Positions 3,221-52,272 of a DNA stretch of 64,000 bases are shown here, piece after piece. Below the pieces are notes generated by a model. That model ran no database searches. It saw only the letters and a program-made list of their open reading frames with translations, and was not told where the DNA came from. Origin of the DNA: a virus (Duplodnaviria > Caudoviricetes); IMG/VR virus record IMGVR_UViG_3300036824_000037, positions 1 through 64,000 of that record; one strand, given 5' to 3'. The first letter of the stretch is position 1. Every line of letters starts with the position of its first letter. Made by a program: the position numbers and the translations under genes.

Positions 3221-3499
3221 CTACTCGGACACGGGCGTCTTGGCCGCCGCCTTCGACGCGGACGCCTTCTTCGACGCGGCCGCCGCTCCGGCGTCCTTCG
3301 ACGCGCCCCCGGATTCCTTGTTGGGCTCCTGCGCGGGCTCTGGTTCCGGCGCGGGCACCGAGACGAACCCGCCGTCGGGGATCTCCAGCAGCGCCTGCGC
3401 GAGGACGTCGTCGACTTCGACGACGTCCTCGGTGGTGCTCCACTCGAGCCCCCCGGGCGCGGAGCCCGGGACGCCCTTGGTCTTTCGCAGCCACGCCAT
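3221..3499 (-). CDS. Small hypothetical protein after capsid
   Basis: MAWLRKTKG... preceded by GGAGG; low-complexity C-terminus. Confidence 0.6.
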   Translation of the reverse strand: MAWLRKTKGVPGSAPGGLEWSTTEDVVEVDDVLAQALLEIPDGGFVSVPAPEPEPAQEPNKESGGASKDAGAAAASKKASASKAAAKTPVSE

Positions 3500-3547
3500 C
3501 GGCGGGCCTCCCATCGGGGTGATAGTGATATGCGGGACGGGGGCGCC

Positions 3548-3575
3548 GCCCCGGCCGGATGGGTCCCGGCCGGGG
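3548..3575 (-). terminator. Hairpin after capsid gene, identical to 1309-1336
   Basis: 28-bp exact copy, but without a T-tract. Confidence 0.5.
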
Positions 3576-3584
3576 AACGGCGGC

Positions 3585-4943
3585 CTACACCAGCGAGACC
3601 GTGCGCGCCAGACGCCCGACGTACTTCGCGCCGCGGCAGCCGAGCACCGTGTCCGTGACCGCCGCGAACGGCAGCACGTCCGGGCTGCTCGTGGTGGGCG
3701 CCAGCGGGATGATCTGCATGTCGCGGGTGTACGGGCGGATCAGGAAGTTCGGGTCGCGCGGCACGAGGTAGATGTCCTCCATGCCGGCGCCGCGCGCCTT
3801 GGCCCCGGTGTTGCCGCCCACATACGCGGCGGGCCCGGTGTTGCCGGACGAGTTCGTCAGCAGGTTCGTGCCGGTGTCGATGATCGACGTGGTGGCGACG
3901 CCGGTGGTGTCGAACGCGTCCACGACCCCGATCAGCGCCTCGTTGCCGGACGAGGTCGAGCGGTACACCTTGTACAGGATCGGCGCGGCGCCGTCGGGCA
4001 TGTTCGCGGGCGTGGAGAAGCTGAGCGTCACCGTGGAGGTCGAGCCGCTCGTGACCTGGGAGACCTCGGTGGAGCACTGGATCTCGCCGAACCGGGCGAT
4101 CACCGCGGACACCTGGTAGGAGTAGGTGGCCGCCGCGAGGGTGCCGCCGGTGGTAGCGGTGCCCGTGGTGACCGCGCCCATCTGGTTGCTGCGCGGCGCG
4201 AGGAAGCTCGACTCGAGCATCGGCACGTTGCGGTAGGAGGGCACGACCAGGCCCGCCGCGACCTCGACCTCGCCCATGAACCGCTGCTGCGCCGTGAGGG
4301 TCTGGCTCACGGACCCGAGCAGCGCCGGGGACATGATGAACATCCAGTTCGGGTTGGACGTGGGCATGCCCGCGTTCGCCGCGACCATCGCCATGATCTG
4401 GTCGAGGTTCTTCAGCGCGAAGTTCGCGCCGCCCAGGTCGATCGAGTTGGTGTACGCGTTGGACCCGGTACCCGCGGTGAAGTTGCTGACCAGGTAGTCC
4501 AGGCCGGAGCAGATCGGGTACTGGCCGTTCTTGGTGGCCGGGTCCGAGCCCCAGATGAACGCGGTCTCGATCGCCCACAGCATCGACTGCACGGTGCCGT
4601 CGATCTCGAGCTGGCGCAGGTCACCGACCAAATCCCTTGTGACCGTCTGGGCGAAGCCCGTGACGGCGCCGACGGCTTGAAACAGCTTGATATCAAACTG
4701 CGCCTGCTCGTAGGTGCTGTTGCCGATCGGGCGGGCGCCGCCGTCGACGACACCGCCGGCGTCCGGGCGGGACACGCGACGGTTGAAGAAGTACGTGGTC
4801 GAACCCCACTGCTTGCTCGGGATCGCGGCGAGCAGCGGCGCGAACCTGCGCTGGTATTCGAGCAGCAGCGGGTCGATCTGCTTCTGGATCAGGGGGGAGA
4901 CCGACGTTGCGGCGGTCAGGGCTTCCTCGAGCTCGGTCGGCAT
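3585..4943 (-). CDS. Major capsid protein with inserted beta-rich domain
   Basis: Start MPTELEEAL after GAAAGGCGAGG; ~450 aa; follows protease/scaffold; capsid-like segments (AVGAVTGFAQ, AIETAFIWG, GLDYLV). Confidence 0.85.
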   Translation of the reverse strand: MPTELEEALTAATSVSPLIQKQIDPLLLEYQRRFAPLLAAIPSKQWGSTTYFFNRRVSRPDAGGVVDGGARPIGNSTYEQAQFDIKLFQAVGAVTGFAQTVTRDLVGDLRQLEIDGTVQSMLWAIETAFIWGSDPATKNGQYPICSGLDYLVSNFTAGTGSNAYTNSIDLGGANFALKNLDQIMAMVAANAGMPTSNPNWMFIMSPALLGSVSQTLTAQQRFMGEVEVAAGLVVPSYRNVPMLESSFLAPRSNQMGAVTTGTATTGGTLAAATYSYQVSAVIARFGEIQCSTEVSQVTSGSTSTVTLSFSTPANMPDGAAPILYKVYRSTSSGNEALIGVVDAFDTTGVATTSIIDTGTNLLTNSSGNTGPAAYVGGNTGAKARGAGMEDIYLVPRDPNFLIRPYTRDMQIIPLAPTTSSPDVLPFAAVTDTVLGCRGAKYVGRLARTVSLV

Positions 4944-5071
4944 CGCGGCCTCGCCTTTCTGTGGGCATGGCAAAGGCCCCGCGCGGCGTCGTGCCGGGCG
5001 GGGCCTATGGCCGGTGAAGAGGTTGCGGGTCGGGGCCCCTCACCGGGGCCGGGTGGCGGTGGCCGTGACGG

Positions 5072-6937
5072 TCAGGCGCCGACCTTGCCGATGTCGCCGA
5101 GCAGGATGTCGGCGCGGTTGTCCCAGATCTCGGTGTCGGTCATGGGCTTGTCGCCGTGGTCGGATTCGGTCGTGCGGTGCCCCTTGCGCGGGGGCAGCCC
5201 GTATTCGCTGACGATGCTGTCGCGCAGCGCCGGGATCGCGGCCTTCAGCGCCTCGGCGACGGTCGCGGCGAGGTCGGCCTTGGTGACCGCCTCGACGGCC
5301 GGGGTCGCGGGGGCGGCCTCCTGTGTGGGTGCGGCGGCTGGAGCCGGGCTGGGCTCGGCAGTGGCCTGCTGGGTCGGCGCGGACTCGGTGGCCGGGGCCG
5401 GGCGCAGCGCCGCGATCAGGGCGGTGAACTGCTCGTTCTGCTGGCGCATCAGCGCGGCGAACTGCTCCGCCGTGACGCCGACGGCCGGGGCGGGTGTGGG
5501 AGTGGCCGCCTCGGCGGCCGGAGTGACGGTCTCGCTCACGGCGGACTCCTCTACTGGGGGTGGGGATGCGGGCGCCTGGGTCGGCGCCGGGGTCACGTAG
5601 CCGCTCGCTTCGGCGGGGACGGACAGTTCGGGTCCGTATTCGGCGCCGATCGCGGCGCCCGGGGGTGACACTGCTGCGGATTCGCCACGGGGCGCGGAGC
5701 CGCACACCTCACAGCCGCACACGCATGGGCACCCGGGACCGCCGGCCATCTCGTCGGGTACCGCGCACCCGCACCCGCACGGGCAGCCGGAGCCGGGAGC
5801 GGGGCACTCGTCATCGCCGGTGGCGTCCTCGATGTCGTCGCCCTCGCCCGCCTCGCTGTCGTCGCCCGGGTCGCCGGGCACGTCGATGTCGGCGTCCATG
5901 TCCGGGTCCAGGGCGCCGAGCGCGTCCAGCGCAGCCACGATCGCCGCGGTCGCGACGGCGCGCAGGCCCGACGGGTCGATCGACGGCGCGCGCAGCGTGA
6001 GGGACACGGGGCCGTTGTAGGCGTCGATCGCGAACCCGGCGCGGCCCTCGGGGCCGTCGTAGCACTCGCGGATCTCCCCGAACCGGGTCGCGGGCGCCGA
6101 CTCCTTGAGTGAGCCGTCCGCGTTCCAGTTGTCAGGGATCATCCCGGTCAGGCCGAGGGCCTTGGCGCGGTCGATGACGTGTGCCCGGATCTTGTCGTGG
6201 TCGGCGCCGCCGCGGCCGACGGCGCGGATCGCGCGGCGCAGGTCCGCCTTGTTCTTGATCGTGTAGGCGGGTTCGCCGTCGGCGTTCTTCATCGCCTGCC
6301 CGGCCTTGAGGGCGTCGCGCTTCTGCGCCGCGGTGTACTCCAGGGCGGGCGCCGCATCGGGGGCCGCGATGGTGTCGGTCTCGGCCACGCGGGCCTCCCA
6401 GGTCTCGGAGATAGGGCTGCGGCCGGGGGTGTGGGCGGCCGACTCGGAGGGCCGCGAGCCCTTCGGCGGGTCGATCAGGGCCGTGACGACGCCCGGGGAG
6501 GCGGTGAAGTCGATGAAGTCGATCTCCAGGTCGTCGGCCGTGACGACCTGCTCGCCCCCGTGCTCTACCTTGCGCTCGCCGATGAACCAGCCGTGGATGC
6601 TGACCGATCGCAGGGCGGGAGGGCCGCCGTCGTCGGGGTAGACCAGTTCGGCGATGTCCCGCGCGGGTGCGGTGTCGTACCAGCGGGCATCGAAGGTCGC
6701 GGACCCGTCCGCCTCCTGCTTTACGGCCACGATCCGACCCGTGATCAGCCTCGAGTCGTCTCCCGCGCCGTGCGATGTCCGCATCACGATCGGCAGGCCG
6801 TCGGGGTCGGCGATGCGCGCCTGCATCCGCGCGACCGCCTTGCCGATCATCTCCTTCGAGTAGAGTCGCCGATTCAGAGACACCCCGGGGCGCAGGAACG
6901 TACCGGAGAGCGGCTTCTTCGTGATCGCCGTGGCCAT
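5072..6937 (-). CDS. Capsid maturation protease/scaffold fusion
   Basis: N-terminal PGVSLNRRLYS...H...SVSIHG...IDFTASPGV prohead-protease pattern; Ala/Pro-rich scaffold-like C-terminus. Confidence 0.75.
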   Translation of the reverse strand: MATAITKKPLSGTFLRPGVSLNRRLYSKEMIGKAVARMQARIADPDGLPIVMRTSHGAGDDSRLITGRIVAVKQEADGSATFDARWYDTAPARDIAELVYPDDGGPPALRSVSIHGWFIGERKVEHGGEQVVTADDLEIDFIDFTASPGVVTALIDPPKGSRPSESAAHTPGRSPISETWEARVAETDTIAAPDAAPALEYTAAQKRDALKAGQAMKNADGEPAYTIKNKADLRRAIRAVGRGGADHDKIRAHVIDRAKALGLTGMIPDNWNADGSLKESAPATRFGEIRECYDGPEGRAGFAIDAYNGPVSLTLRAPSIDPSGLRAVATAAIVAALDALGALDPDMDADIDVPGDPGDDSEAGEGDDIEDATGDDECPAPGSGCPCGCGCAVPDEMAGGPGCPCVCGCEVCGSAPRGESAAVSPPGAAIGAEYGPELSVPAEASGYVTPAPTQAPASPPPVEESAVSETVTPAAEAATPTPAPAVGVTAEQFAALMRQQNEQFTALIAALRPAPATESAPTQQATAEPSPAPAAAPTQEAAPATPAVEAVTKADLAATVAEALKAAIPALRDSIVSEYGLPPRKGHRTTESDHGDKPMTDTEIWDNRADILLGDIGKVGA

Positions 6938-7352: not shown

Positions 7353-8861
7353 TCAGGCCGCGGTCAGGTATCTGTCATACGAGTCGGGCAGCGACCAGTC
7401 CGAGGCGAGCGCACACCGGCAGCGCGCGTGCGTGGGAATCTCCGGGGTATCGGCGAGCAGATACGGCGACCCGGCCTCATTTGCCTCGCACGCTGCGCAC
7501 ACTCTCGAGTCGGATGCGGTCAGCACCGAGACGTAGGCGACGCCCTCGCTGGCGTAGAGGGCGAGGGCGCCCTGGCTCAGCGCGGTCGACAGCGCCCAGT
7601 CAGTGATGAACGCCACCGCGTCGCCGTCCACGCCGTCGAGCACAGCACCGGCCGCGTCGAGCATGTCCAGGTAAGAGGCGCCGTCCGCGGCGAGCTGACC
7701 GAGTGCACGCCCGAGTTCATCGGCAGCGCGGCCGATCATGCGCCCGAGCCAGCCGTCGGCGTCCGCCCACAACTGGCCGAGGTTGGCGAGCGCGTCGTAG
7801 GCGTCGGCGAACGCCAGGTCAAAGTCGATGCCGATCTTCCCGGCTCCCTGCCCGGCCAGGGCGATCGCCCCGGCGGCGCCTTCGGCGCGCCCGGAGCGCA
7901 GTGCGTCGCGCATCGCGTCGCGCAGCCGCTGCCATGCCCGGCCAGCGGGCAGCCAGGCGAGCAGGGTTAGAGCAGCGTCGCGGGCCGCCTTCTTGGCGCG
8001 GGCGAGCAGCGCCGGGTCGGCGGCCTCGGTGACGCCGAGGCTGGTGCGCAGGTGCTTGACCATCGCGCCGATGTCGAGTGCTGCGACAGCGTCGCGCCAG
8101 GCGGCGAGCATGACCGCGCCGTGCTTCGCGATCAGTGCGTCGCGGCGCTGGTAGATCTGCGCCCACAGTCCTTCGAGCGCGCCGAGCTTCAGGGTCGCTT
8201 CGAGGATCCCGGGGTCGTGCATGTGTTCGCACGCCATGCGTACGGCCGCGACGCAGCCGGCTTTGACCCGGTCGGTCATGGGTCCGCCGGTGCGCGCCCA
8301 CCCGGTGGCGTATGCCTCGCGGGCGAGGTCGGCGAGCGGATGTGCGGCGGGGGCTCGGGTCTCGGCCCTGGTTGCGAGCGGGACGTCGATGCGGGTGGTG
8401 CCGTGCTCGACGGACAGCGCGCCGACCAGGAAGCTCAGGGGCGCGAGCCGCCCGGTGGTGTCCGGCTCGCTGGCGTCAATGTAGGCCCTGGACAGGTGGG
8501 CTGTGAATCCGTGCTCGCGCGGGATGTCCACGCCGTGTTCCGTCAGGGCATCCAGGGCGGCGCGGCGCAGGTCTTCGAGTTCGGGTGCGTCGATGAGGGC
8601 GATGAGAACGTCCTGGTCGCCGCCGGTGAACCGGGCGGATCCCGCGACGGTGGCGGTGAATGGGCCGACCGACCGGGCTGCGTCTGCGGCGGCGGCGATC
8701 AGGTCGCGGACGTCGACGTCGGCCGCTTGCCCCGTGTAGGCGATGGTGACGTGAAGCGAGTCGGGGCTCAGTCCACCGGGCAGCGCGAGGGCCGCCGCGA
8801 TGTCCGGCGGCGGGTAGAGGGCCAGCATGCAGGAGTCGGAATAGTCGGGCTGATCGGACAC
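7353..8861 (-). CDS. 2H phosphoesterase (2'-5' RNA ligase/Acb1-like) fused to MuF-like minor head domain
   Basis: LHVTIAY and AHLSRAY HxT/S motifs at the N-terminus; TASDSRVCAAC...PTHARCRC MuF motif at the C-terminus; directly after portal. Confidence 0.8.
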   Translation of the reverse strand: MSDQPDYSDSCMLALYPPPDIAAALALPGGLSPDSLHVTIAYTGQAADVDVRDLIAAAADAARSVGPFTATVAGSARFTGGDQDVLIALIDAPELEDLRRAALDALTEHGVDIPREHGFTAHLSRAYIDASEPDTTGRLAPLSFLVGALSVEHGTTRIDVPLATRAETRAPAAHPLADLAREAYATGWARTGGPMTDRVKAGCVAAVRMACEHMHDPGILEATLKLGALEGLWAQIYQRRDALIAKHGAVMLAAWRDAVAALDIGAMVKHLRTSLGVTEAADPALLARAKKAARDAALTLLAWLPAGRAWQRLRDAMRDALRSGRAEGAAGAIALAGQGAGKIGIDFDLAFADAYDALANLGQLWADADGWLGRMIGRAADELGRALGQLAADGASYLDMLDAAGAVLDGVDGDAVAFITDWALSTALSQGALALYASEGVAYVSVLTASDSRVCAACEANEAGSPYLLADTPEIPTHARCRCALASDWSLPDSYDRYLTAA

Positions 8862-23801: not shown

Positions 23802-24013
23802 CAGCGGATCCCCTTCGGGTCGTGGATCAGTTCGCGCAGGTCGATGCCGAACAGGGCGAGACGCACATGGATCGCTTCGAGGTCCGCGGCGGGGATGGAC
23901 GCGAGCATCCCGACGGCCATCGCGGCGTCACCAGCGCGCGCGGCGCCGATCAACAGCTCGAGCCGGGTCGCGGACGTGCCGTCGATCTCCGGCAACACTG
24001 TCCCCGCGCTCAC
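23801..24013 (-). CDS. Small hypothetical protein
   Basis: Translationally coupled on both sides. Confidence 0.55.
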   Translation of the reverse strand: MSAGTVLPEIDGTSATRLELLIGAARAGDAAMAVGMLASIPAADLEAIHVRLALFGIDLRELIHDPKGIR

Positions 24014-26046
24014 GCGAACTCCTTGTGCACGTACTTGGTGTTCGGGGCCGCGCCGCGCGCCGCCGCGTTGCCGGCGCGCACCTCGTCGGCCAGCCACGCG
24101 TGCACGGTCTGGCGCACACAGGTGTGCCCCTCGGACTTCAGGCGCTCGGTCAGGTCCGTGGTGCCGATCCCGGCCGGCCCGGCTTCGAACAGGATCCCGA
24201 GCATCCGCAGTCGCGCCCCACTCGCGGGCGCGGCCGGGTCGGGCAGCTGTTCGGCCAGTCGCGCAAACTCCGACTCGTAATCCTCCGGGTTGAACGGGCG
24301 CGGGATCGCCTTGCCCTGCCCGGTGGTGAACGTCGGCTTCGCGCCCGGCGGCGGCCCGACGACCGGCAGCCCCAGCAGCGCCTTGCCCGTCGTCGTCATG
24401 GGGGGCACCGGTCCGGTCCCCGGGCGGTCCTCCACGACCGCAGTCGCAGCGGGGCGTGCGGCGCCCGGGTGCAGGTGCCCGGCGCGCTCCATCGACCACC
24501 GCTGCGCGTACACCCCGCCGAGCACCGCCGCCAGGTCGTCCTCGACACCAGGGCGCAGCCAGGAGGCGGCGGCGGCGATCTCGTAGATCTCCTGAGGGTT
24601 CTTCTCCGCGTCGAGCAGATAACCCTTGCTGGGGATCGGGCGCGCACGGCGCCGCTTGTCCTTGGCCACGAGCGCCCCCGGGTGCTTGAGCCCAGCCACC
24701 ACGGCGGCCATCTGCGGGTCCTCGAACAGTTGCTGCGCCTCCTGGCGGCTCATGCCGCCACCCACCCCGATGACCAGCTTGCACAGCGAGGACAGGTCCC
24801 CCGAGCCGCCCATGGTCACGGTGGAGCGCTGCGCGAGCAGTACCGCGGCCACGGCCTCGGAGCGGCCGGTCTGAGCGAGCATCGTCAGCAGTTTCGTGTA
24901 CTTGCCGGATGTCTCGGCGTGCATGCCGATCAGGGCGGAGACCTCCTCGCCGATCACCACGATCTGCGGCTGGTGCGCGCTCGGGATGATTTTCGAGCCT
25001 CCGGCGCCGCTGTGCGCCCGGTGGTCGATCGCGGCCAGCGCCGCCTGGAGCATGAGCGCGGCCTCGGCGTCGGTGGTGGCGACCCAGTCAAGCACGGGCC
25101 GGTCGCTCTCGCCGCGCAGCCAGGGCTCGAGCCAGGGACGGGCGGTGCGGCCACCCTTCTTGTCGATCACCCAGACGACGGTGTCGACGCAGAAGATCAG
25201 CCGGGCGATCAGGACGTTGAGGAGCACGGACTTGCCTTCACCGGTGGTGCCGATGACCCGGGCGTGCACCTCCCGCAGCAGGATCTCGAGCTTCTCCCCG
25301 GTCTCCGTCAGGGCGATGTCGAACGGGTCGTTGATACTGCGCGGAGCCGTGTCGCGGGGGATCGGGACGATCTCGGCGAGCACGTCGCGAGTGGTCACGT
25401 GCACCAGCGCGACGCTCGCGGTCGGGCCCCTCTCCACCCGCACCCGACCCTCGGGCACGTCGAGCGCGACCTCGAGCTGCTCGAGAAGGCCCGCGATGCG
25501 CTTGACCGTCATGCCCTTGTACGCGGGCAGCCGCAGCACCTTCGTGTAGCCGGCCCGCCACACCCGGGTCTCCTCGACCGTGACGCCGGGGCAGCCGAAC
25601 TCGGCGAGCAGCCCGGGCCAGTCACCCTTGCGCCCCGCCCGGCCGGCGGCGTCCTTCGCGAGTTGGTAGCTGCCGCGCCGCTCGCGCCGGTCCAGGTGGT
25701 GCGCGAGCCAGTAGGTCGGCCACAGCGCGCTCAGCGCGAGCGCGAGCGACACCCCGGCCGGTTTCGTGAACGGGGAGGCGGCCTGGGTGTAGACCAGCCA
25801 CGCCGCGGCGACGGCGACGGCGACGGCGGTGTAGACCAGCATCCAGATGCTGCGGCGGGTCAGGGCGCCGATGGTGCCGCCGACGACCGCGGCGACCAGG
25901 CACACCGCGATGACGGCGGCGGGCTGGCGCAGGTAGGTCGCGGCGGCGCTGACGGCGTAGAGGGAGGCGGCGGCGAGCGGCGGCGCCGCCGCCTCGTGGC
26001 GGATCTGCGGGTCGTTGCCCTTCGGTGTGCTCTTCGCGGCGGCCAC
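24010..26046 (-). CDS. traB: FtsK/SpoIIIE-type plasmid transfer translocase (TraB-like)
   Basis: N-terminal TM helices, Walker A GTTGEGKS, IDKKGG, VVIGEE, GRSEAV...LAQR, C-terminal winged helix. Confidence 0.8.
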   Translation of the reverse strand: MAAAKSTPKGNDPQIRHEAAAPPLAAASLYAVSAAATYLRQPAAVIAVCLVAAVVGGTIGALTRRSIWMLVYTAVAVAVAAAWLVYTQAASPFTKPAGVSLALALSALWPTYWLAHHLDRRERRGSYQLAKDAAGRAGRKGDWPGLLAEFGCPGVTVEETRVWRAGYTKVLRLPAYKGMTVKRIAGLLEQLEVALDVPEGRVRVERGPTASVALVHVTTRDVLAEIVPIPRDTAPRSINDPFDIALTETGEKLEILLREVHARVIGTTGEGKSVLLNVLIARLIFCVDTVVWVIDKKGGRTARPWLEPWLRGESDRPVLDWVATTDAEAALMLQAALAAIDHRAHSGAGGSKIIPSAHQPQIVVIGEEVSALIGMHAETSGKYTKLLTMLAQTGRSEAVAAVLLAQRSTVTMGGSGDLSSLCKLVIGVGGGMSRQEAQQLFEDPQMAAVVAGLKHPGALVAKDKRRRARPIPSKGYLLDAEKNPQEIYEIAAAASWLRPGVEDDLAAVLGGVYAQRWSMERAGHLHPGAARPAATAVVEDRPGTGPVPPMTTTGKALLGLPVVGPPPGAKPTFTTGQGKAIPRPFNPEDYESEFARLAEQLPDPAAPASGARLRMLGILFEAGPAGIGTTDLTERLKSEGHTCVRQTVHAWLADEVRAGNAAARGAAPNTKYVHKEFA

Positions 26047-36668: not shown

Positions 36669-37126
36669 CGCTCGGCGCTCCCGTCCGGCGCGGTGCGCGT
36701 GGTCTCGATCCGCGGGTCGACGAGTCTGCCGAGGTCGCGGGCGCGCCGGCTGCGGCGCGCGGCGTCGCGGCGTTCGCGCAGCCGCTTGACCAGCACGGGC
36801 GCGTGGAGCTGCGCCTCGGGCCGGTCGATCAGCGAGTTGAGGATCTGGTGGTAGCAGACCGCGGACACACCGAACTCGGCGCGGATCGCGGCCTCGCGCT
36901 GGCCCGGGTGACGGAACGTTTTGCCGGCGAAGTCCAGGACGCGCCGGTCGGTGTCGGTCAGCGCGCAGGCCTGGGCGTAGTGCGCGGCCGTCGCGGTGTC
37001 GAACTGCTCCTGGGCGTCGGCGTCGAGGTGTTCGCGTTCGTCGGCGTAGTACTGCGGGTCGGCGGCGGCGCGGGCGATGTCCGGGGCGCGGCGGGCGGTG
37101 GCGGTCTTGGTGGCCATCTCAGGCAC
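36665..37126 (-). CDS. DUF3263-domain protein
   Basis: LTDTDRRVLDF...REAAIRAEFGVSAVCYHQILNSLID.PEA...PVLVKRLR. Confidence 0.8.
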   Translation of the reverse strand: MPEMATKTATARRAPDIARAAADPQYYADEREHLDADAQEQFDTATAAHYAQACALTDTDRRVLDFAGKTFRHPGQREAAIRAEFGVSAVCYHQILNSLIDRPEAQLHAPVLVKRLRERRDAARRSRRARDLGRLVDPRIETTRTAPDGSAER

Positions 37127-40011
37127 CGGCCTTCGGGGTCTCGTTGTTGCGGGCGTATACGGCCCCGTCGCGCCACAGGAGGGCCAGGTGGCCGCTCAGG
37201 GCGAGCGCGAGCGTGGAGTCCAGCGCGAGGCCCAGGCGCTCCAGGGTGGCGTCGACCGCGGTGTGGCACGCGGCCACAGCGGCGGGGCTCAGGGTGTCCG
37301 CTGCGTTGTCGCGGCGGGCGGAGGCGAGGTGGATGACGGGTGCGTCGCCGATGCGGGTGACCGACGCGAGGCCGGGCGCGCTGGTGGTGTGCCGGTTCAT
37401 CAGGCACCCGCCGTCTCGCTGCGCAGTGCCTCGCCGCGGTAGTAGTCGGCCCTGGCGGTGTCGCCGGTCAGCAGCGCGTCGTACGCGAGCAGCGCCATGG
37501 CGAGCGGCCGGATCTGGTCGGGTTCCAGCGAGATGCTGGTCATTCCGCCGATCACGGTTAGCAGCGTCTGCTCGGCGGGTCGGGAGAGGAACAGGGACGC
37601 GAGGTCGACGGCGTCGCCGGCGTGGGTGCGCTCGCCGAAGTCGATGTCCAGGGTGTCGCTGAAGCACGCCCCGGTGTATGTGGGGTCGTTGGGGTCCAGC
37701 GGGTGCTCGGTGCACCAGCTCCCGTGGGTGAGCGGGGGCCGGTCCGGGGTGCTCATGCGGCACCGCCGGTGGTGTTGCGGTGGTAGGCGTGGCTGATCTC
37801 GGCTGCGGCGTGCGCGAGGTCGCTCAGGTCCTCGGGGTGCAGGGGCAGGCGGATCTCGGGGCGTGCGGCGGCGATCGAGAGCAGCACGGTGCGGGACGCG
37901 GCCAGCTCCGGGGTGGTGTCGGCGAGGGCGGTCAGTTGCTCGTTGCTGAGCGAGCCCAGGACGGCCAGGCCCCGCTCTACGGCGCTGTGCCGCTGTACTG
38001 TGGTTGTCACGATCCGTTTCCTTCCGGAGGCTGGCGGGTCATCTGGCCCTCGATCGGTAGCCGCCGGTCGGGGGCCGCTGGTTTTCGCGGCGGTCGGTGC
38101 TGACGCGGTCTGGGCGCCGCGCGGGCCGGGGAGGTGTGCGTCCCGCGCGGCTGCCACACCGGTCAGTTGCTGTGACGGTTACGGGCCAGGGCGCGCTCGA
38201 GCTTGTGGCGGCGCCACACCTTGGCGTCGGCGACGGCCTGCGCGTCGTGGTGCAGGAGCGCGGCCGGGTTGGGGTCGGGGGCGTGGGCGGCGCAGTGGCG
38301 GCAGCCGTCGCAGTTGGCGTCGAACTGGTTCGCGTTGCAAGCCATCGGAGGGGCCTTCCGGGTCGGTGCGGGCGGGGGTAGGGCCGGTCAGTTCCGGGCG
38401 CTGCCCGACGTGCCGAGACCGGCGCGCGCGACCTGGTCGCGCTGCTTGTTGATGCGGGGGTCGAGCTGCACGGACGCGGTGTCGCCCGCCTTCAGCGCGG
38501 CCCGGAGCTTGTCGTCGCTCGCCTGCGACGCGGCTTTGGTGGCGTCCATGGCCATGGGGTTGGTCTCCTTCGCGTTTGGGTTCGGGCTGAGTGCCCGCGG
38601 CCACCCGGCCGGTGGATTAGCTGCTGGCCGAGCGCGCCTGGTTGAGCAGGTCTTGCGCCTGCCGGTCGGACACGAAGCGGCCCTGATCGGCCAGGGCGCC
38701 GCGCAGTTGCCGGGCGGTGACCGGGCCGCGGACGGCCTCGACCTCGCGCACGACTGCGGTCACTGCGGCGGTGTCGCGCTTGCTCTGCCTGTCCTGTCGG
38801 TTGAACATGGGGCGTCTCCTTCGTTCCTGGTCGGTGTTGTGCCGGGCGGTTCGGGCGTCCGGCGGCCCTGGCGCGAAGCCGCCGGGACGGGGGTCAGGTC
38901 CGCACGTACGCGCGGTGCGCGTCCCGCAGCACCGCCGCGGCCTTCATCAGGTGCCCCGCGAGGTCCTCCTGGTCGAGCGAGGTGAACCGCGGGTCGTCCT
39001 GCAAGGGGCCGGCCAGGATCTCGAGCTGGTGGACGGCTTCGGCGACGGCGTTGGCCGCGTCGCTCAGCGCCTGCCCGAGGGCTTCGGTGGCCTGGGCGGG
39101 GTCGTCGTTGCGGGTCATGCGGGGCTCCGTTCGGGGTCGGTCGGTTGGGTGGTTGGCCGCCCGCGCCCTGGGTGCGGCACGGGGCGCGGGCGGCCGGTCT
39201 GGGGCTACTTGCGGCGCCAGCCCGCGCTGCGGATCGCGGCGGCGTCCTCGCGGGCGCCCACACCATCGACGAGCGTGCGGGCGAGCGACGCCGCGGTGTC
39301 GCGGGAACCGGTGCGGTACCCGTTGCGTTGTGCGGCGGCGGCGAGGTCGGACTTGGTCGCGTTGTCCACGATCGCGCGGGCCTCGGCGCGGGTGGTGGCC
39401 TTGCTCAGCCGGTCGGCGATGCTCATCGGGGTTGCCTTTCGGGGTCGGGTGGTGGCGGTTCTCGGGGTCAGCGCTCGGCGAGGCTCAGCTCGTTGCGCGC
39501 GATCATGAGGGCGGTCTCGGCGCTGTCGGTGGCGGCGCGGGTCAGGAACGCGGCTTGCGGCAGGTCGGTGCCGGCCTGGGTGAGCAGCGCGATGGCCCGG
39601 GTCAGGTTGTCCACGGCCCGGCGGGCCTGTGCGGCGGACATGGGGGGCTCCTTCGGGGCCGGGGTGATCGGGCCGTTGCCGGCCAGCGCGCGGCGGACCG
39701 CGTCCAAGCCCTCGGCCCGGTAGCGGCGGGTGGTCTCGCTGGTGACGTCGCCGGGGTCGGCGGCGGGCGGGAAAACGGCGGCGCTCTCGGTCTCGTCGTC
39801 CGGGACGCGGGTCAGCGGCGCGTACTGCGCCAGCCACGCCGAGGGCTTCCTGTCGCGGTTGTAGCCGCCGAGACAGCGGAAGCTCCAGGTGTCGCCGTGG
39901 CGGCCCCAGAACTTCTTCCACTGCGCGCCCTGGTTGTCGGTGACGACGGCGTGGGTCGGGAGCGCGTCGAGCTCGGCTGCGGTGGTGATCAGGGCGGCGG
40001 CGAGGGTCATC
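37119..40011 (-). other. Operon of about nine small hypothetical CDSs
   Basis: For example 37400-37756, 38163-38345, 38617-38808, 38894-39118 and 39205-39426, with AAGGAG/GAAAGG RBSs. Confidence 0.5.
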
Positions 40012-44823: not shown

Positions 44824-45881
44824 ATGACCACCGAAACCACCGCGCGCGCCCGCCGCAGCCGCCGGCCATCCAACGCGGACCGCTCGCACCGCCTCGACGA
44901 CCTCACCGCGTGGCTCACCGCCCGCAACAGCGTGGCACCCACGCAGAACCAGGAGACCCGCTCATGCTGATGCTCGAAGGCGCCCTGATCGCGCTCGGCG
45001 CGTTCCTGCTCGGCCGCGTACTGCCCGGCCGACGCCGCACACCCAAACCCGCGCCGCCACCCCGGCCGATCTGCGACTGCCGGCACAGCATCAGCTTCCA
45101 CACCGACGGAACCGGCGGCTGCGCGTGGGTGGGCGAGAAGTTCTACAAGTCCGGCTGCGGCGCGATCACCCCGAAGTGCACCTGCCTGCGGTACGTCGGC
45201 CCGACCCCGCTGCCGGAGTACTTCGCCAACGAGATCAGCGCGACATGACCGCCCTGCCGCCGGAGATCACCCGCAACCTCGACGCGCACCGCACCGCGCT
45301 CGCGTTCATCCGCGCCATGCTCACCGACCGGATCGACGACGCACTCGAGCTGTGGTTCACCTGCCCCGAAGACCAGCGCATCGACATCGGCTTCGCCCTC
45401 GCCACCCAAGCCGCCGCATACCTGAGCGCCCGATGCGGCGGAGGGGAAGCCGGCGGCCGGATGGCGCTCCGCTACGCCGACGAGACGCTGCTGGCCATGG
45501 CGCAGGAGGACGGCGGATGAGCGCCCCGGCTGGCTTCGAGCCTTATCGAACAACACCCCGGCCCGCTGCCGGGCCATCCCCGCTAGCAAGGAGGCACCAC
45601 CCATGACCCTGACCGCCCTCGACGCCCTAGACACTGACCTGCTCGACGCCCTCGCGGCTGTGGAGCGGGCACGCCGACGACTCGAACAGGCGCGGTCGGC
45701 CGGCGGATCCACCGTTCGCGGATCCACCGCCGGCGTACCCGCGCTCGCCGCAGCGTCGGACCCGAACCGCGCGCAGCGTCCGGACGAGTGCGTCATCCGG
45801 GGCGTCCGCTACCGCCTCGTGCCCAACGCGCACGAGGTGATCGAGGCGGCACTGGCCCGGAAGACGGCCGCACGTGGTTGA
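44824..45881 (+). other. Small hypothetical CDSs (44824-44970, 44964-45248, 45245-45520, 45603-45881)
   Basis: RBS-preceded, mostly coupled ORFs. Confidence 0.55.
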
Positions 45882-45883
45882 GG

Positions 45884-46450
45884 TCGCCCCGCGCCAAAGA
45901 GCGGCCAGGCCGCGCCTCACCCCGCCAGGGCGCGTCGCGCCAAACCGGGCCGGGCCATGCCACGCCTGCCATACCTGGCCCGTCCTCGCCGCGACGCGCC
46001 CAGCCAGGCCGGACCCCGCCTGCCGTGCCATGCCTGGCGATACCTCGCCTAGCCACGCCTGCCACACCAAGTCGGAACCCGACCCACCTGGCCAATCCGG
46101 GACTGGACGCACCATGACGTGCCGGAACGCGCCTGCCAGTACCTGCCAAGCCATACCGAGCCGAGCCCGGACCTGCCGTGCCTGCCGCGCCATGCCGTGC
46201 CGGGCTCTGCCGGGACGGGACACGCCGGGACTCGCGATGCCCTACCTGCCCCACCGAGCCGGGCCTAGCCTATCCGCGCCCTGCCTGGACGAGTCCGACC
46301 GAACCGGGCCTGCCGGGACCCGCCAAGCCTCGCCGTGCCTCAACGCGCCTATCCGTGCCGAGCCCGAACTCGCCCCGCCTGCCGGGCCATGCCAAGCCAA
46401 ACCGCGCCAAAACCACCGTGCCCAACCACGCCAGGACGTGCCTGCCGCGC
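45884..46450 (-). repeat. (GGY-NN)n pentamer array with 11 GGCAGGY delimiters; putative multi-guide ncRNA
   Basis: Near-strict 5-nt register; delimiters (plus-strand RCCTGCC) at 45964, 46018, 46057, 46131, 46141, 46171, 46180, 46244, 46308, 46377 and 46440. Confidence 0.9.
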
Positions 46451-46888
46451 TCACGCAGCGGCGCTATCCGCCCCGCCGACGTCCTGACGCACCATCGCCA
46501 CGAACTCCTCGAACTCCCTGTAGCGGCGATACAGCGCCTTCCACTCCCGCTCCATCGCCCGCAACACCAACTCGCTGCGAAAAGGATCCTCCCGCACCTC
46601 CTCGGCCGGGTCGTACGCGTACCCGTCCTTCGACGGCACCGACACGAACGCCCGCACCGACTTGGCCGGCCCCGACTCGTCGGCCTCCCGGTACGCGATC
46701 CGCACACTGCGGATCAACTCGCGCGCCTGGTGCAGCCGGTACGCCTCGCCCGCGGCCGAGTCGTCCCACTCGAACCGCGAGTGCAGCGGATGCGACGGCT
46801 CGCGCGCGGCGGTCACCACGTGCCTGTCTGCGAGCGTTCCGTACTGTGAACGGATCGCCAGCAGTTCCGAACGCAGGTCGGTGCTCAC
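46451..46888 (-). CDS. Partner protein of the RAMP-like gene
   Basis: 145 aa, GTGA-coupled to the upstream gene; HPLHSRFEWDDSAAGEAYRLHQARELI motif. Confidence 0.8.
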   Translation of the reverse strand: MSTDLRSELLAIRSQYGTLADRHVVTAAREPSHPLHSRFEWDDSAAGEAYRLHQARELIRSVRIAYREADESGPAKSVRAFVSVPSKDGYAYDPAEEVREDPFRSELVLRAMEREWKALYRRYREFEEFVAMVRQDVGGADSAAA

Positions 46889-47520
46889 GCAGCCACCAGC
46901 TCGCGGAGTCCGCGCACTACCTCGACCGGGCGGTTCGGGTCCAGGACATAGGTGCCGAAGTCGCCGTCCTTCTCCGGACGCCACTCGCCAACCCCGACGC
47001 CACCCCCACCGGCCTCGATCAGCGAGAGCACCGATTCCTGGGTGAGCGCCGAGGTGACGTACGTGACCTCCAGCGTCGCCGACCAGGGCAGGAACTGCGG
47101 CCGGTAGCGCAGGTCCGAGCCGCTGCGGTTGACCGTGACCACGTCCTCGCGCATCACCGGCTCGCCGACGATCCGCACGAGCCCTCGGCCATCGGAGCCG
47201 ATCTCGCCACGGAAGAACATGTACTGCTTGAGCGCGGTCATCGTGACGCCGCTGAAGAGGCGCGCACCGCTGACGGTGGCCGCCTTGAACGCGAGGGCGG
47301 GAAAGCCGTATCCGCCGTCGGCGAGCCGGTAGAACGCGGCCTCGTACTCGCCCTGCGGGTCCTTGTTCTGCTTGGGCGCCTTGCGGCCCTGCATGTTGTC
47401 CAGCATCTGGCGCTTGGCCTTCTCGCTGAACTTGTGCACGATCAGCGGCGCGGTCCCGGCGATGGGGACGTGGATCGTCTCGGTGCCGATCCGGCTGATG
47501 TTGATCGTGGCATCGGTCAT
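46885..47520 (-). CDS. Solo RAMP/Cas7-like RNA-binding protein
   Basis: 211 aa, GGAG RBS; first strand IAGTAPLIVH, YGFPALAFKAA helix motif, C-terminal Gly-rich loop AGGGGVGVGEWRPEKDGDFG. Confidence 0.72.
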   Translation of the reverse strand: MTDATINISRIGTETIHVPIAGTAPLIVHKFSEKAKRQMLDNMQGRKAPKQNKDPQGEYEAAFYRLADGGYGFPALAFKAATVSGARLFSGVTMTALKQYMFFRGEIGSDGRGLVRIVGEPVMREDVVTVNRSGSDLRYRPQFLPWSATLEVTYVTSALTQESVLSLIEAGGGGVGVGEWRPEKDGDFGTYVLDPNRPVEVVRGLRELVAA

Positions 47521-47589
47521 GGCTGTCTCCAGAGAGAGATCAAGGGAATGGTGAGTTTTCAGCCACTCCGCGCCACGAACCGTGCGAGC

Positions 47590-47620
47590 AGTATAGGAGA
47601 TGCAATGCGAAGATATGCAA
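47590..47620 (-). promoter_or_regulatory. Putative promoter of the RAMP cassette
   Basis: TTGCAT-N19-TATACT in an AT-richer patch; TTGCAT is repeated within the spacer. Confidence 0.45.
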
Positions 47621-47756
47621 GTGAGGCCACGCCCCGGAGCCGGGCGGCGGCGGTTACCTGCCACGAATCGACCTGCACGGCCGGCTCCGGGGATGGGGTT
47701 CAGGGCGTGCGCCCCCTCGCGGACCGATGCCACGGCGCGGCGAGGGAGGACTCCCG

Positions 47757-48041
47757 ATGACCTACGTCACCTGGCGCCGCCCGAACCCGGACGACGACCG
47801 CCCCACCGTCCCCTACTCGTGGTTCGGCTGGGGCCACCTGTACGGGCGCCGCTGGCAGTACTGGCCGCCCTGGGGCGTGACGTACTGGTGGCGGCCTCAG
47901 GCCATCGACGCGTGCGACGGCGAGCGAGCGTCGAAACTCGTCACCGTGCCACTGCTCGGCGCCATCGTGTGGTTCTTCAACTCGCCCTGCGACTGCCCGG
48001 GCGACGCGTCGGCCCAAGGCTGCGAGCCGGGTCAGCGATGA
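47757..48041 (+). CDS. Trp-rich hypothetical protein
   Basis: GGAGG RBS; MTYVTWRR... Confidence 0.55.
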   Translation: MTYVTWRRPNPDDDRPTVPYSWFGWGHLYGRRWQYWPPWGVTYWWRPQAIDACDGERASKLVTVPLLGAIVWFFNSPCDCPGDASAQGCEPGQR

Positions 48042-51414: not shown

Positions 51415-51426
51415 GTGAGGGTCCGC

Positions 51427-52272
51427 GTGACCGACAAGACCGCGCTCGGCGACCGCGTCAAGCGATACGAGCAAGCCGCCCACACCGTGCTGCCGCGCCG
51501 CTGCTACACCCTGATCCGCTGCGACGGACGCGCCTTCCACTCCTACCTGCGCGGCGCCGACAAGCCCTTCGACTACGCCTTCATGGACGACATGGACGCC
51601 ACCGCCGCAGCCCTCTGCGCGGAGATCTCCGGCGCCGCGTTCGCGTATGTGCAGTCCGACGAGATCAGCGTGCTGCTCACCGACTTCGCCACCCACGGCA
51701 CCGAGCCCTGGTTCGGCGGCGAGGTGCAGAAGATGGTGTCCATCGCCGCGGCCACCGCGACCGCGGCCCTGAACGCACGCCGCTACGACGGACCCAACGG
51801 CGCCCCGGGCACGGACCGTCTCGCGACGTTCGACGCAAGGGTGTTCACCCTCGCCGACGCCGCCGAGGTCGGCAACTACTTCATCTGGCGCCAACGCGAC
51901 GCGGTCCGAAACTCGATCACCATGGCGGCGCAGGCCCTGTTCTCGCATAAGCAACTCAACGGGGTGAACAGCGACCAGAAGCAGCAACTGCTGTGGGAGT
52001 CGGGCATCAACTGGAACGACTACCCGGACGGCGCGAAACGCGGCCGGATCGTCACCCGCAAGACCGGCGAGCGGGAGGTGACGTTCACCCACAAGCGCAC
52101 CCAGGAAACCGAGACGGTCACCGCGATGAGGTCGTGGTGGGACGCTGAGCCCGCCCCGCACTTCACGCTGGAGCCGGGTGGGTTCCTCGCGCGGACAATC
52201 CCGCCGCTGCCGACCCTGGCTGCCGCATCGGCAGAGTCGCCCGCCCTCGCAGAACTGGAGCCGACGCCGTGA
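51427..52272 (+). CDS. tRNA(His) guanylyltransferase Thg1-like 3'-5' polymerase
   Basis: LIRCDGRAFH, KPFD, YVQSDEIS, WFGGEVQKMVS, FDAR and YFIWRQRDAVRNSI. Confidence 0.95.
   Translation: MTDKTALGDRVKRYEQAAHTVLPRRCYTLIRCDGRAFHSYLRGADKPFDYAFMDDMDATAAALCAEISGAAFAYVQSDEISVLLTDFATHGTEPWFGGEVQKMVSIAAATATAALNARRYDGPNGAPGTDRLATFDARVFTLADAAEVGNYFIWRQRDAVRNSITMAAQALFSHKQLNGVNSDQKQQLLWESGINWNDYPDGAKRGRIVTRKTGEREVTFTHKRTQETETVTAMRSWWDAEPAPHFTLEPGGFLARTIPPLPTLAAASAESPALAELEPTP

Follow-up and report, generated by a model that had tools for sequence, protein, structure and literature searches.

What could be the function of a stretch of phage DNA that encodes no protein and in which a scaffold triplet alternates, unit after unit, with a freely varying dinucleotide? 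The stretch lies on the minus strand at positions 45884-46450 of the 64,000-nt window that was analysed here, where it is non-coding and is bounded by the stop codon of a 145-aa gene (46451-46888) and by a convergent 92-aa ORF (45603-45881). The window belongs to a 128.8-kb virus record that is estimated to be complete and has portal, large terminase and major head protein genes; its terminase is ≤33% identical to that of any isolated phage, and its 71% GC content and closest relatives point to Actinomycetota as the probable host phylum. A preliminary description of this DNA had interpreted the region as an array of about eight guides. The guide-array interpretation is supported by the homology of a neighboring gene product to Vipr, by conserved synteny and by conserved GGCA punctuation of the repeat, although the count is not, as we find six full-length and four short units. 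We consider it very probable that the region is the guide RNA (vrRNA) array of a phage-encoded VIPR system that consists of vipr, an accessory gene and the array, all on the minus strand.

VIPR (Viral Interference Programmable Repeat) is a phage-borne, CRISPR-related DNA silencing system that became known through preprints of 2026 (10.64898/2026.04.26.720920, 10.64898/2026.04.26.720927, 10.64898/2026.10.15.759431). Its RAMP protein, Vipr, oligomerises on a vrRNA of 9-16 GGY/NN repeats with one protomer per repeat; it sequesters GGY and presents NN, which pairs with DNA in such a way that every third base, usually the codon wobble base, is skipped, and binding silences transcription (10.64898/2026.04.26.720920, 10.64898/2026.04.26.720927). 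Satellites, prophages and other VIPR systems are the natural targets, and there are no self-targets; the SUSP1 and P. fulva systems can be reprogrammed by changes in NN alone; and the discoverers have proposed this minimal RNA-guided DNA-binding system as an ancestor of CRISPR (10.64898/2026.04.26.720920, 10.64898/2026.04.26.720927). Seven VIPR types have been defined, and “staggered arrays” have been described (fig. S18 of that work) in which the next vrRNA starts where the previous one ends, with a one-base overlap; RNA sequencing confirmed only the ribozyme-interspersed and single-vrRNA architectures and not the staggered one, and the one-base-skip rule and silencing were shown by experiment only for type II systems with tailed vrRNAs (10.64898/2026.04.26.720920, 10.64898/2026.04.26.720927).

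Structure of the repeat array

The period-5 autocorrelation that had been predicted for this region is present: its self-identity is 0.50 at lag 5 and at lag 10, and 0.22-0.30 at other lags. When a 567-nt window was slid along the whole 128.8-kb contig, lag-5 identity peaked at the array (0.49 vs a mean of 0.29, sd 0.022; z = 8.9), the second-highest window reached 0.37, and no second GGYNN array was found in the contig. The repeating unit is five bases long, a GGY scaffold and a free dinucleotide (NN), and four-base GGCA units, each of which shifts the phase by one base, are interspersed among the five-base units. A dynamic-programming parse gave 113 units, 83 of them with a perfect GGY, 28 with one scaffold mismatch (single-mismatch scaffolds are GTC, GTT, GGA, GAC, CGC and AGC) and 2 with more. 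Entropies at the three scaffold positions are 0.22, 0.93 and 0.96 bits, and those at the two N positions are 1.98 and 1.91 bits.

The phase of GGC is constant inside a run and falls by one at every GGCAGG, so the delimiter is a four-base GGCA unit among five-base units. On the minus strand GGCAGGY starts at 46446, 46383, 46314, 46250, 46186, 46177, 46147, 46137, 46063, 46024 and 45970. The spacings between these starts given in the preliminary description (63, 69, 64, 64, 9, 30, 10, 74, 39 and 54) were reproduced exactly, a recount agrees that seven of them are 5n+4 and three are off by one, and the five NN strings it had spelled out match the new parse letter for letter. The array, its delimiters and its units are as follows:

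45902..46446, minus strand: vrRNA array, ~113 GGY-NN units in the same sense as vipr and vap, starting 4 nt past the vap stop codon
46443-46446 (first), 46380-46383, 46311-46314, 46247-46250 and 46183-46186, minus strand: GGCA delimiters, each shifting the five-base phase by one
46144-46147, 46134-46137, 46060-46063, 46021-46024 and 45967-45970, minus strand: GGCA delimiters, continued, each shifting the five-base phase by one
46384..46442, minus strand: U1, 5 + 6 repeats divided by a variant 4-nt slip, GGTG, at 46417-46414
46315..46379, minus strand: U2, 13 repeats
46251..46310, minus strand: U3, 12 repeats
46187..46246, minus strand: U4, 12 repeats
46148..46182, minus strand: U5, 7 repeats, followed by GGCA, an irregular GGTACT and GGCA (46147-46134)
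46064..46133, minus strand: U6, 14 repeats
46025..46059, minus strand: U7, 7 repeats
45971..46020, minus strand: U8, 10 repeats
45902..45966, minus strand: U9, 13 repeats, the last unit, with no GGCA after it

Ten units are counted when U1 is divided into U1a and U1b. With boundaries taken from the phase slips, six units (U2, U3, U4, U6, U8 and U9) have 10-14 repeats and four (U1a, U1b, U5 and U7) have 5-7, compared with the 9-16 repeats published for vrRNAs. The parse of the array shows no tails between units, only GGCA, and folding of the array RNA is at the level of shuffled sequences (z +0.6 to +1.6), as is expected of a single strand that is coated by protein. The lack of tails and of excess folding excludes the type II architecture and does not exclude VIPR as a whole. 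A search of 45000-47500 against Rfam gave nothing relevant.

A pentanucleotide microsatellite generated by slippage, or another simple repeat of no function between convergent genes, could also have a five-base period. Tandem Repeats Finder (TRF) reports short period-5, period-9 and period-10 repeats within the region, which is non-coding and G-rich on one strand (the array strand is 45% G), and these features agree with such an origin. Nonetheless, we give it almost no credence, because entropy at the free positions is near its maximum and the units all differ, save for a four-NN overlap between U4 and U6, and because it is already contradicted by the comparative data (below).

The overlap between U4 and U6 consists of the last four NNs of U4, CC AC AT GC (46187-46201), which reappear as NNs 2-5 of U6 (46109-46133). 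It could be due to two guides that tile one target, to two Rossmann-type targets that have A-I-V-G in common or to recombination within the array. A second local regularity concerns the mismatched scaffolds: in the window, T at scaffold position 2 (GTC, GTT) goes together with C at the first free position (odds ratio 12, p 5e-4), and the same pairing of GTC/GTT with C at that position is seen in 38 other loci (odds ratio 2.2, p 8e-4). C at the first free position is generally rare after GGY (12%), and no explanation was found for the link.

Protein-coding readings of the region were rejected. A five-base period with one-base slips cannot hold a reading frame, and the 628-aa plus strand ORF at 45874-47760, antisense to both vipr and vap, looks like a typical spurious ORF of DNA with 71% GC.

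The vipr gene and its partner

Two genes precede the array on the same strand:

46885..47520, minus strand: vipr, 211 aa, RAMP/Cas7-like, predicted to bind the GGY scaffold; match to phrog_4652
46451..46888, minus strand: accessory gene in the vap role, 145 aa, whose start overlaps the vipr stop by 4 nt; match to phrog_15946

A longer ORF that reaches 47733 was rejected as the extent of vipr; it is an over-extension, and the public gene call is 211 aa. A phmmer search of the PDB with the 211-aa protein found the Vipr protein of SUSP1 (36pp_D, E 7.7e-5), and a profile of 65 sequences of the protein matched the same chain with E 5.5e-13 over 179/203 profile positions (chain residues 5-188 of 202). 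In SUSP1 the bases G1, G2 and Y3 are read by H17, R138, D177, W178 and R179 (10.64898/2026.04.26.720927), and these residues align with H29, R140, E179, W180 and R181 of the phage protein. Among 65 diverse homologues the H is kept in 57, R140 in all 65, E or D in 64, the W in 57 and R181 in all 65; E179, where SUSP1 has D177, is a conservative change, and glutamate is the majority state in this clade. The family is a large one, with 3459 clusters at 50% identity.

The AF2 model of the protein (pLDDT 94.3, pTM 0.89) gave the same answer by another route. At E ≤ 1e-3 Foldseek matched it to 65 chains in the PDB, with E values from 2e-6 and a TM of about 0.5, and all those listed are subunits of CRISPR effector complexes (type III Csm/Cmr, type VII or type I-A Cascade). 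The Foldseek library is older than the Vipr entry, so this evidence from the fold is independent of the sequence match.

The 145-aa partner protein had no match in Pfam or in sequence searches of the PDB, Pfam searches with the ORFs flanking the array gave nothing, and Foldseek found nothing at E ≤ 1e-3 for the AF2 model of the partner (pLDDT 90.6). Residues 1-99 of that model weakly resemble winged-helix DNA-binding domains (VIA-align, Z 5.0-5.8), and we take this predicted winged-helix-like N-terminal domain as a weak lead. DNA-binding Vap proteins of the winged-helix sort have been predicted for several VIPR types (bioRxiv 10.64898/2026.04.26.720920, 10.64898/2026.04.26.720927). In 35/38 related loci vipr is followed on its strand by a homologue of the partner gene, and the 145-aa gene is in keeping with an accessory gene (vap) of a VIPR system.

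Related loci and kinship with known systems

A GGYNN array of at least 8 units is present within about 1.6 kb of the vipr homologue in 30 of 34 genome loci, which span Actinomycetota, Chloroflexota, Clostridia, Alphaproteobacteria, Nitrospirota and Planctomycetota, and all of these arrays are on the vipr strand and none on the opposite strand. The same linkage of vipr to a same-strand array is found in mycobacteriophages Quico and Donkeykong, in Gordonia phage Ecliptus and in a 122-kb metagenomic relative. The place of the array varies among loci; it lies before vipr, between vipr and the partner gene, or after both. Of the 156 four-base slips parsed in 38 other loci 121 are GGCA, and breaks of any other length number only 8; between breaks the median run is 9 repeats long and 65% of the runs fall within 8-16, and in these loci too scaffold entropy is low and NN entropy near-maximal. 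Judged from these sequences, GGCA is a conserved punctuation of the whole clade, across distant phyla. Both the occurrence of arrays beside vipr, always on its strand, from Actinomycetota to Clostridia, Alphaproteobacteria and Planctomycetota, and the conservation of the GGCA slip contradict an origin of the repeat as a microsatellite.

The free dinucleotides, in turn, differ between relatives. A relative whose Vipr is 79% identical has about twenty units with the same scaffold and with NN strings that are almost all different, a few of its units starting like units here; such turnover of NN on a constant scaffold is the pattern that would be expected of guides.

The arrangement of these loci also bears on whether the repeat acts as DNA, for instance as iterons that the winged-helix-like neighbor binds in replication, partition or packaging. 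The weak winged-helix likeness of the partner's N-terminal domain is in keeping with this, as is a period of five bases, which is half a helical turn. However, the array keeps to the strand of vipr in every locus, which argues for a transcript, the neighboring protein by which the module is defined is a RAMP that binds RNA and has conserved GGY-reading residues, and a position before, between or after the genes is as expected of a co-transcribed RNA gene. We regard a DNA-level element as highly improbable, and return to the array as the source of a vrRNA.

The locus resembles the published VIPR systems in several ways. It has a lone small RAMP that is homologous to SUSP1 Vipr and keeps the GGY readers, a two-gene operon with an accessory gene, and GGY/NN (YNNGG) pentamers in tandem on the strand of that operon, whose NN are hypervariable; it is encoded by a virus, and its units lack a self-target (below). 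It differs from the type II systems of SUSP1 and P. fulva, which have separate vrRNAs of ~100 nt with a conserved pseudoknot tail, in having about ten abutting units with only GGCA at their junctions. In its tail-less units it is like the “staggered arrays”, with a 4-base slip between them. The architecture of the locus is of the staggered type, and it is a known kind of system and not a new kind.

Likeness to class 1 CRISPR systems is more distant. The predicted RRM core, glycine-rich loop and thumb of the protein are shared with Cas7 proteins (Csm3, Cmr4, type I and type VII), as is the principle of a filament in which one protomer covers a fixed number of guide bases and a thumb periodically flips bases out. 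Unlike class 1 CRISPR-Cas systems, the locus has no cas1/cas2, Cas5, Cas6 or large subunit, its guide is non-contiguous, and its period is five with three bases sequestered, as in VIPR, compared with a period of six with one base flipped in Cas7 filaments. A CRISPR array, in which constant repeats of ~24-40 nt alternate with unique spacers about as long, is absent from the region, whose only repeat is the five-base unit. Sites for the TRAP protein have a conserved triplet (GAG or UAG) and a two-base spacer in about 11 repeats, with one subunit per triplet, and their spacers carry no information; the protein here is unrelated to TRAP, which has neither arrays of units nor a link to phage genes. 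A protein-binding repeat of the TRAP-like or CsrA-like kind was dropped once the neighboring gene matched Vipr.

A mechanism can be proposed as follows. The vipr gene, the accessory gene and the array are probably co-transcribed, judging from the gene order and from the homologous systems. By homology with SUSP1, one Vipr protomer would bind each GGY triplet, flip these three bases away and present the two free bases, and the free dinucleotides of a unit would pair with double-stranded DNA that carries the same dinucleotides with one skipped base between them, usually a codon wobble base. As in the systems described in the literature, a filament on its target would then block the target's transcription. 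Since each protomer needs a GGY every five bases, a four-base GGCA would put the next GGY out of register, and a filament that runs along one unit may stop at the slip and a new one begin there, such that each run of 10-14 repeats would make one guide. The junction at GGCA might be exposed to nucleases and the RNA be cut at that point, and the targets may be rival phages or defence genes. This role for GGCA is suggested by the lack of tails and ribozymes, by the unit lengths and by the one-base overlap described in the preprint, and would fit all three.

By itself the locus adds little to what is known of VIPR; it documents the tail-less staggered architecture that was left without experimental confirmation in the preprint. 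The conservation of GGCA punctuation across phyla is mildly new, and so is the presence of the staggered architecture in cultivable actinophages, cluster F mycobacteriophages and Gordonia phages, whose vipr is annotated as hypothetical. A Vipr homologue was found in 27 records of cluster F mycobacteriophages, in 5 records of Gordonia phages (Ecliptus, ODay, UmaThurman, Pipp), in cyanophage Cy-LDV1 and in Pseudomonas phage LESphi2, in all of which it is called a hypothetical protein. Because the cluster F and Gordonia phages can be cultivated, RNA ends and silencing are directly testable in them.

Two observations were made on the cluster F arrays. In phage Donkeykong (NC_051648), gp49 is the Vipr homologue and gp50 the partner gene, and the CDS annotated as gp48, a “hypothetical protein” (36870-37256; 3419-3805 of our locus L002), lies wholly on the GGYNN array; gp48 is probably the vrRNA array of a VIPR system and not a gene. 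At the end of the cluster F arrays a short conserved unit precedes a hairpin, GGCUGG-GCAA-CCAGCC (L002 3430-3460 and L001 2870-2900, minus strand; fold z -1.9), that may be a terminator or a 3' cap and has no equivalent in the array of the window.

Candidate targets of the guides

If the units are guides, their NN strings should be found, with one base skipped after each dinucleotide, in the DNA that they recognize. The large sequence collections were scanned by exact seeds only, of 8 or 9 consecutive NN, and extension was then scored over the remaining positions. No exact natural target was found, and the matches of 8-NN and 9-NN seeds from the six guides U2, U3, U4, U6, U8 and U9 in IMG/VR extend at 0.22-0.41, which is chance level. 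Two 8-NN seeds of U2 had 0 and 2 matches there, with extension at chance; the U3 seed had 4, with no extension; and the matches of the U8 and U9 seeds do not extend. With skips of 0-3 bases, no unit matches the 128.8-kb phage itself above the level of shuffled units. The idea that U7 is aimed at the operon's own promoter was rejected, since its best match on its own contig is 11/14 and shuffles gave 10.8 ± 0.5 with a maximum of 12. The gapped target search proposed in the preliminary description found no exact target, and its IMG/VR seeds were mostly at chance, but a seed of U4 fell on a recognizable motif.

Read antisense with the one-base skip, U4 gives A-[I/M]-V-G-L-G-G-T-G-S-[I/M]-L, the nucleotide-binding motif of ThiF/E1 proteins. 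A seed of NNs 3-12 of U4, which has 20 fixed bases, had >120 exact matches in metagenome contigs among the matches listed; all 78 of the matches examined carry VGLGGTGS, and 77 of the 78 are open in that frame. The best matches have 23/24 NN, in a 302-kb metagenome contig (L219), and 21/24 NN, in a 143-kb viral contig of 67% GC (L071), and both genes match PF00899 ThiF. In the first of these contigs the gene order at 3585-6801 is Prok-E2_E, ThiF and a TCAD9/kinase-like gene, and in the second a Prok-JAB gene adjoins ThiF (4286-5693); both contexts look like conflict operons of the ubiquitin-like conjugation kind. We take E2-E1 and JAB-E1 operons of this kind to include known anti-phage systems.

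Other results on U4 are less favorable. A seed of its NNs 1-10 had 0 matches in the metagenome scan, and an 8-NN seed of U4 in reversed order had 12 matches in IMG/VR vs 39 for the true seed, a threefold difference that is weak and depends on a single control. A tblastx comparison of the phage with the contig that has the 21/24 ThiF match gave only low-complexity noise, and there is no ThiF gene in the phage itself. Taken together, the matches are good evidence, at the level of sequence, that U4 may be written in codon register against a ThiF/E1-type gene; which gene, or whose, is not thereby named. This match, by which at least one guide appears to read a conserved enzyme motif in codon register, is also mildly new.

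U6 offers a second and fainter case. Read in sense, its NNs 3-10 give T-M-A-Q-P-F-Q-G, a motif of Mu F-like head-morphogenesis proteins, and its seed falls 14 times, in frame, on AATMAQPFQG of such proteins, in contigs of moderate GC; extension past the seed is only 6-7 of 12. We treat the relation of U6 to the Mu F-like motif as a lead only.

Codon register was also examined more generally, and the seed matches are mixed in this respect: they lie in register in 31/39 cases for U4, 17/22 for U6, 2/30 for U8 and 0/4 for U3. The NN positions as a whole are 59% GC, near the mean of codon positions 1 and 2 of the phage (68% and 53%) and far from position 3 (91%), and the log-likelihood of NN under a codon model is -269.8 vs about -274.5 under a uniform model, so that the uniform model is nearly as good.

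These results bear on the proposal that the repeat, as RNA or DNA, is a sponge that titrates the Vipr-like protein or a scaffold that nucleates it, does not guide it to specific targets and has NN that vary by neutral drift. The lack of an exact target, the chance-level extension of most seed matches, the nearly uniform NN usage and the four short units all agree with it. Against it, the homologous SUSP1 and P. fulva systems are reprogrammed by NN alone, neutral drift would not give ten consecutive in-register ThiF codons with >120 exact seed matches among those listed, and the lengths of GGCA-bounded units cluster in the published range for guides across phyla. A sponge or scaffold is in our view improbable, though less so than either of the other two alternatives considered above.

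The identity of the U4 motif raises the further idea that, within the proposed vrRNA array, some guides have as their targets the conserved catalytic motifs of conflict genes, of the host or of rivals, and not the regulators of rival phages. We offer this as a speculation that is probably wrong in this form, with a likelihood somewhat above that of the sponge or scaffold. If it is true, the phage uses RNA-guided silencing as an anti-defence weapon against genes that are slow to mutate at the guided positions.

Elsewhere in the window are genes for a Thg1-like tRNA-His guanylyltransferase (phrog_4717, E 1.5e-74) at 51415-52272, for an RNA-ligase-like protein at 7353-8861 and for an FtsK/SpoIIIE-like one at 24010-26046; the Thg1-like and RNA-ligase-like genes fit an RNA-repair gene set.
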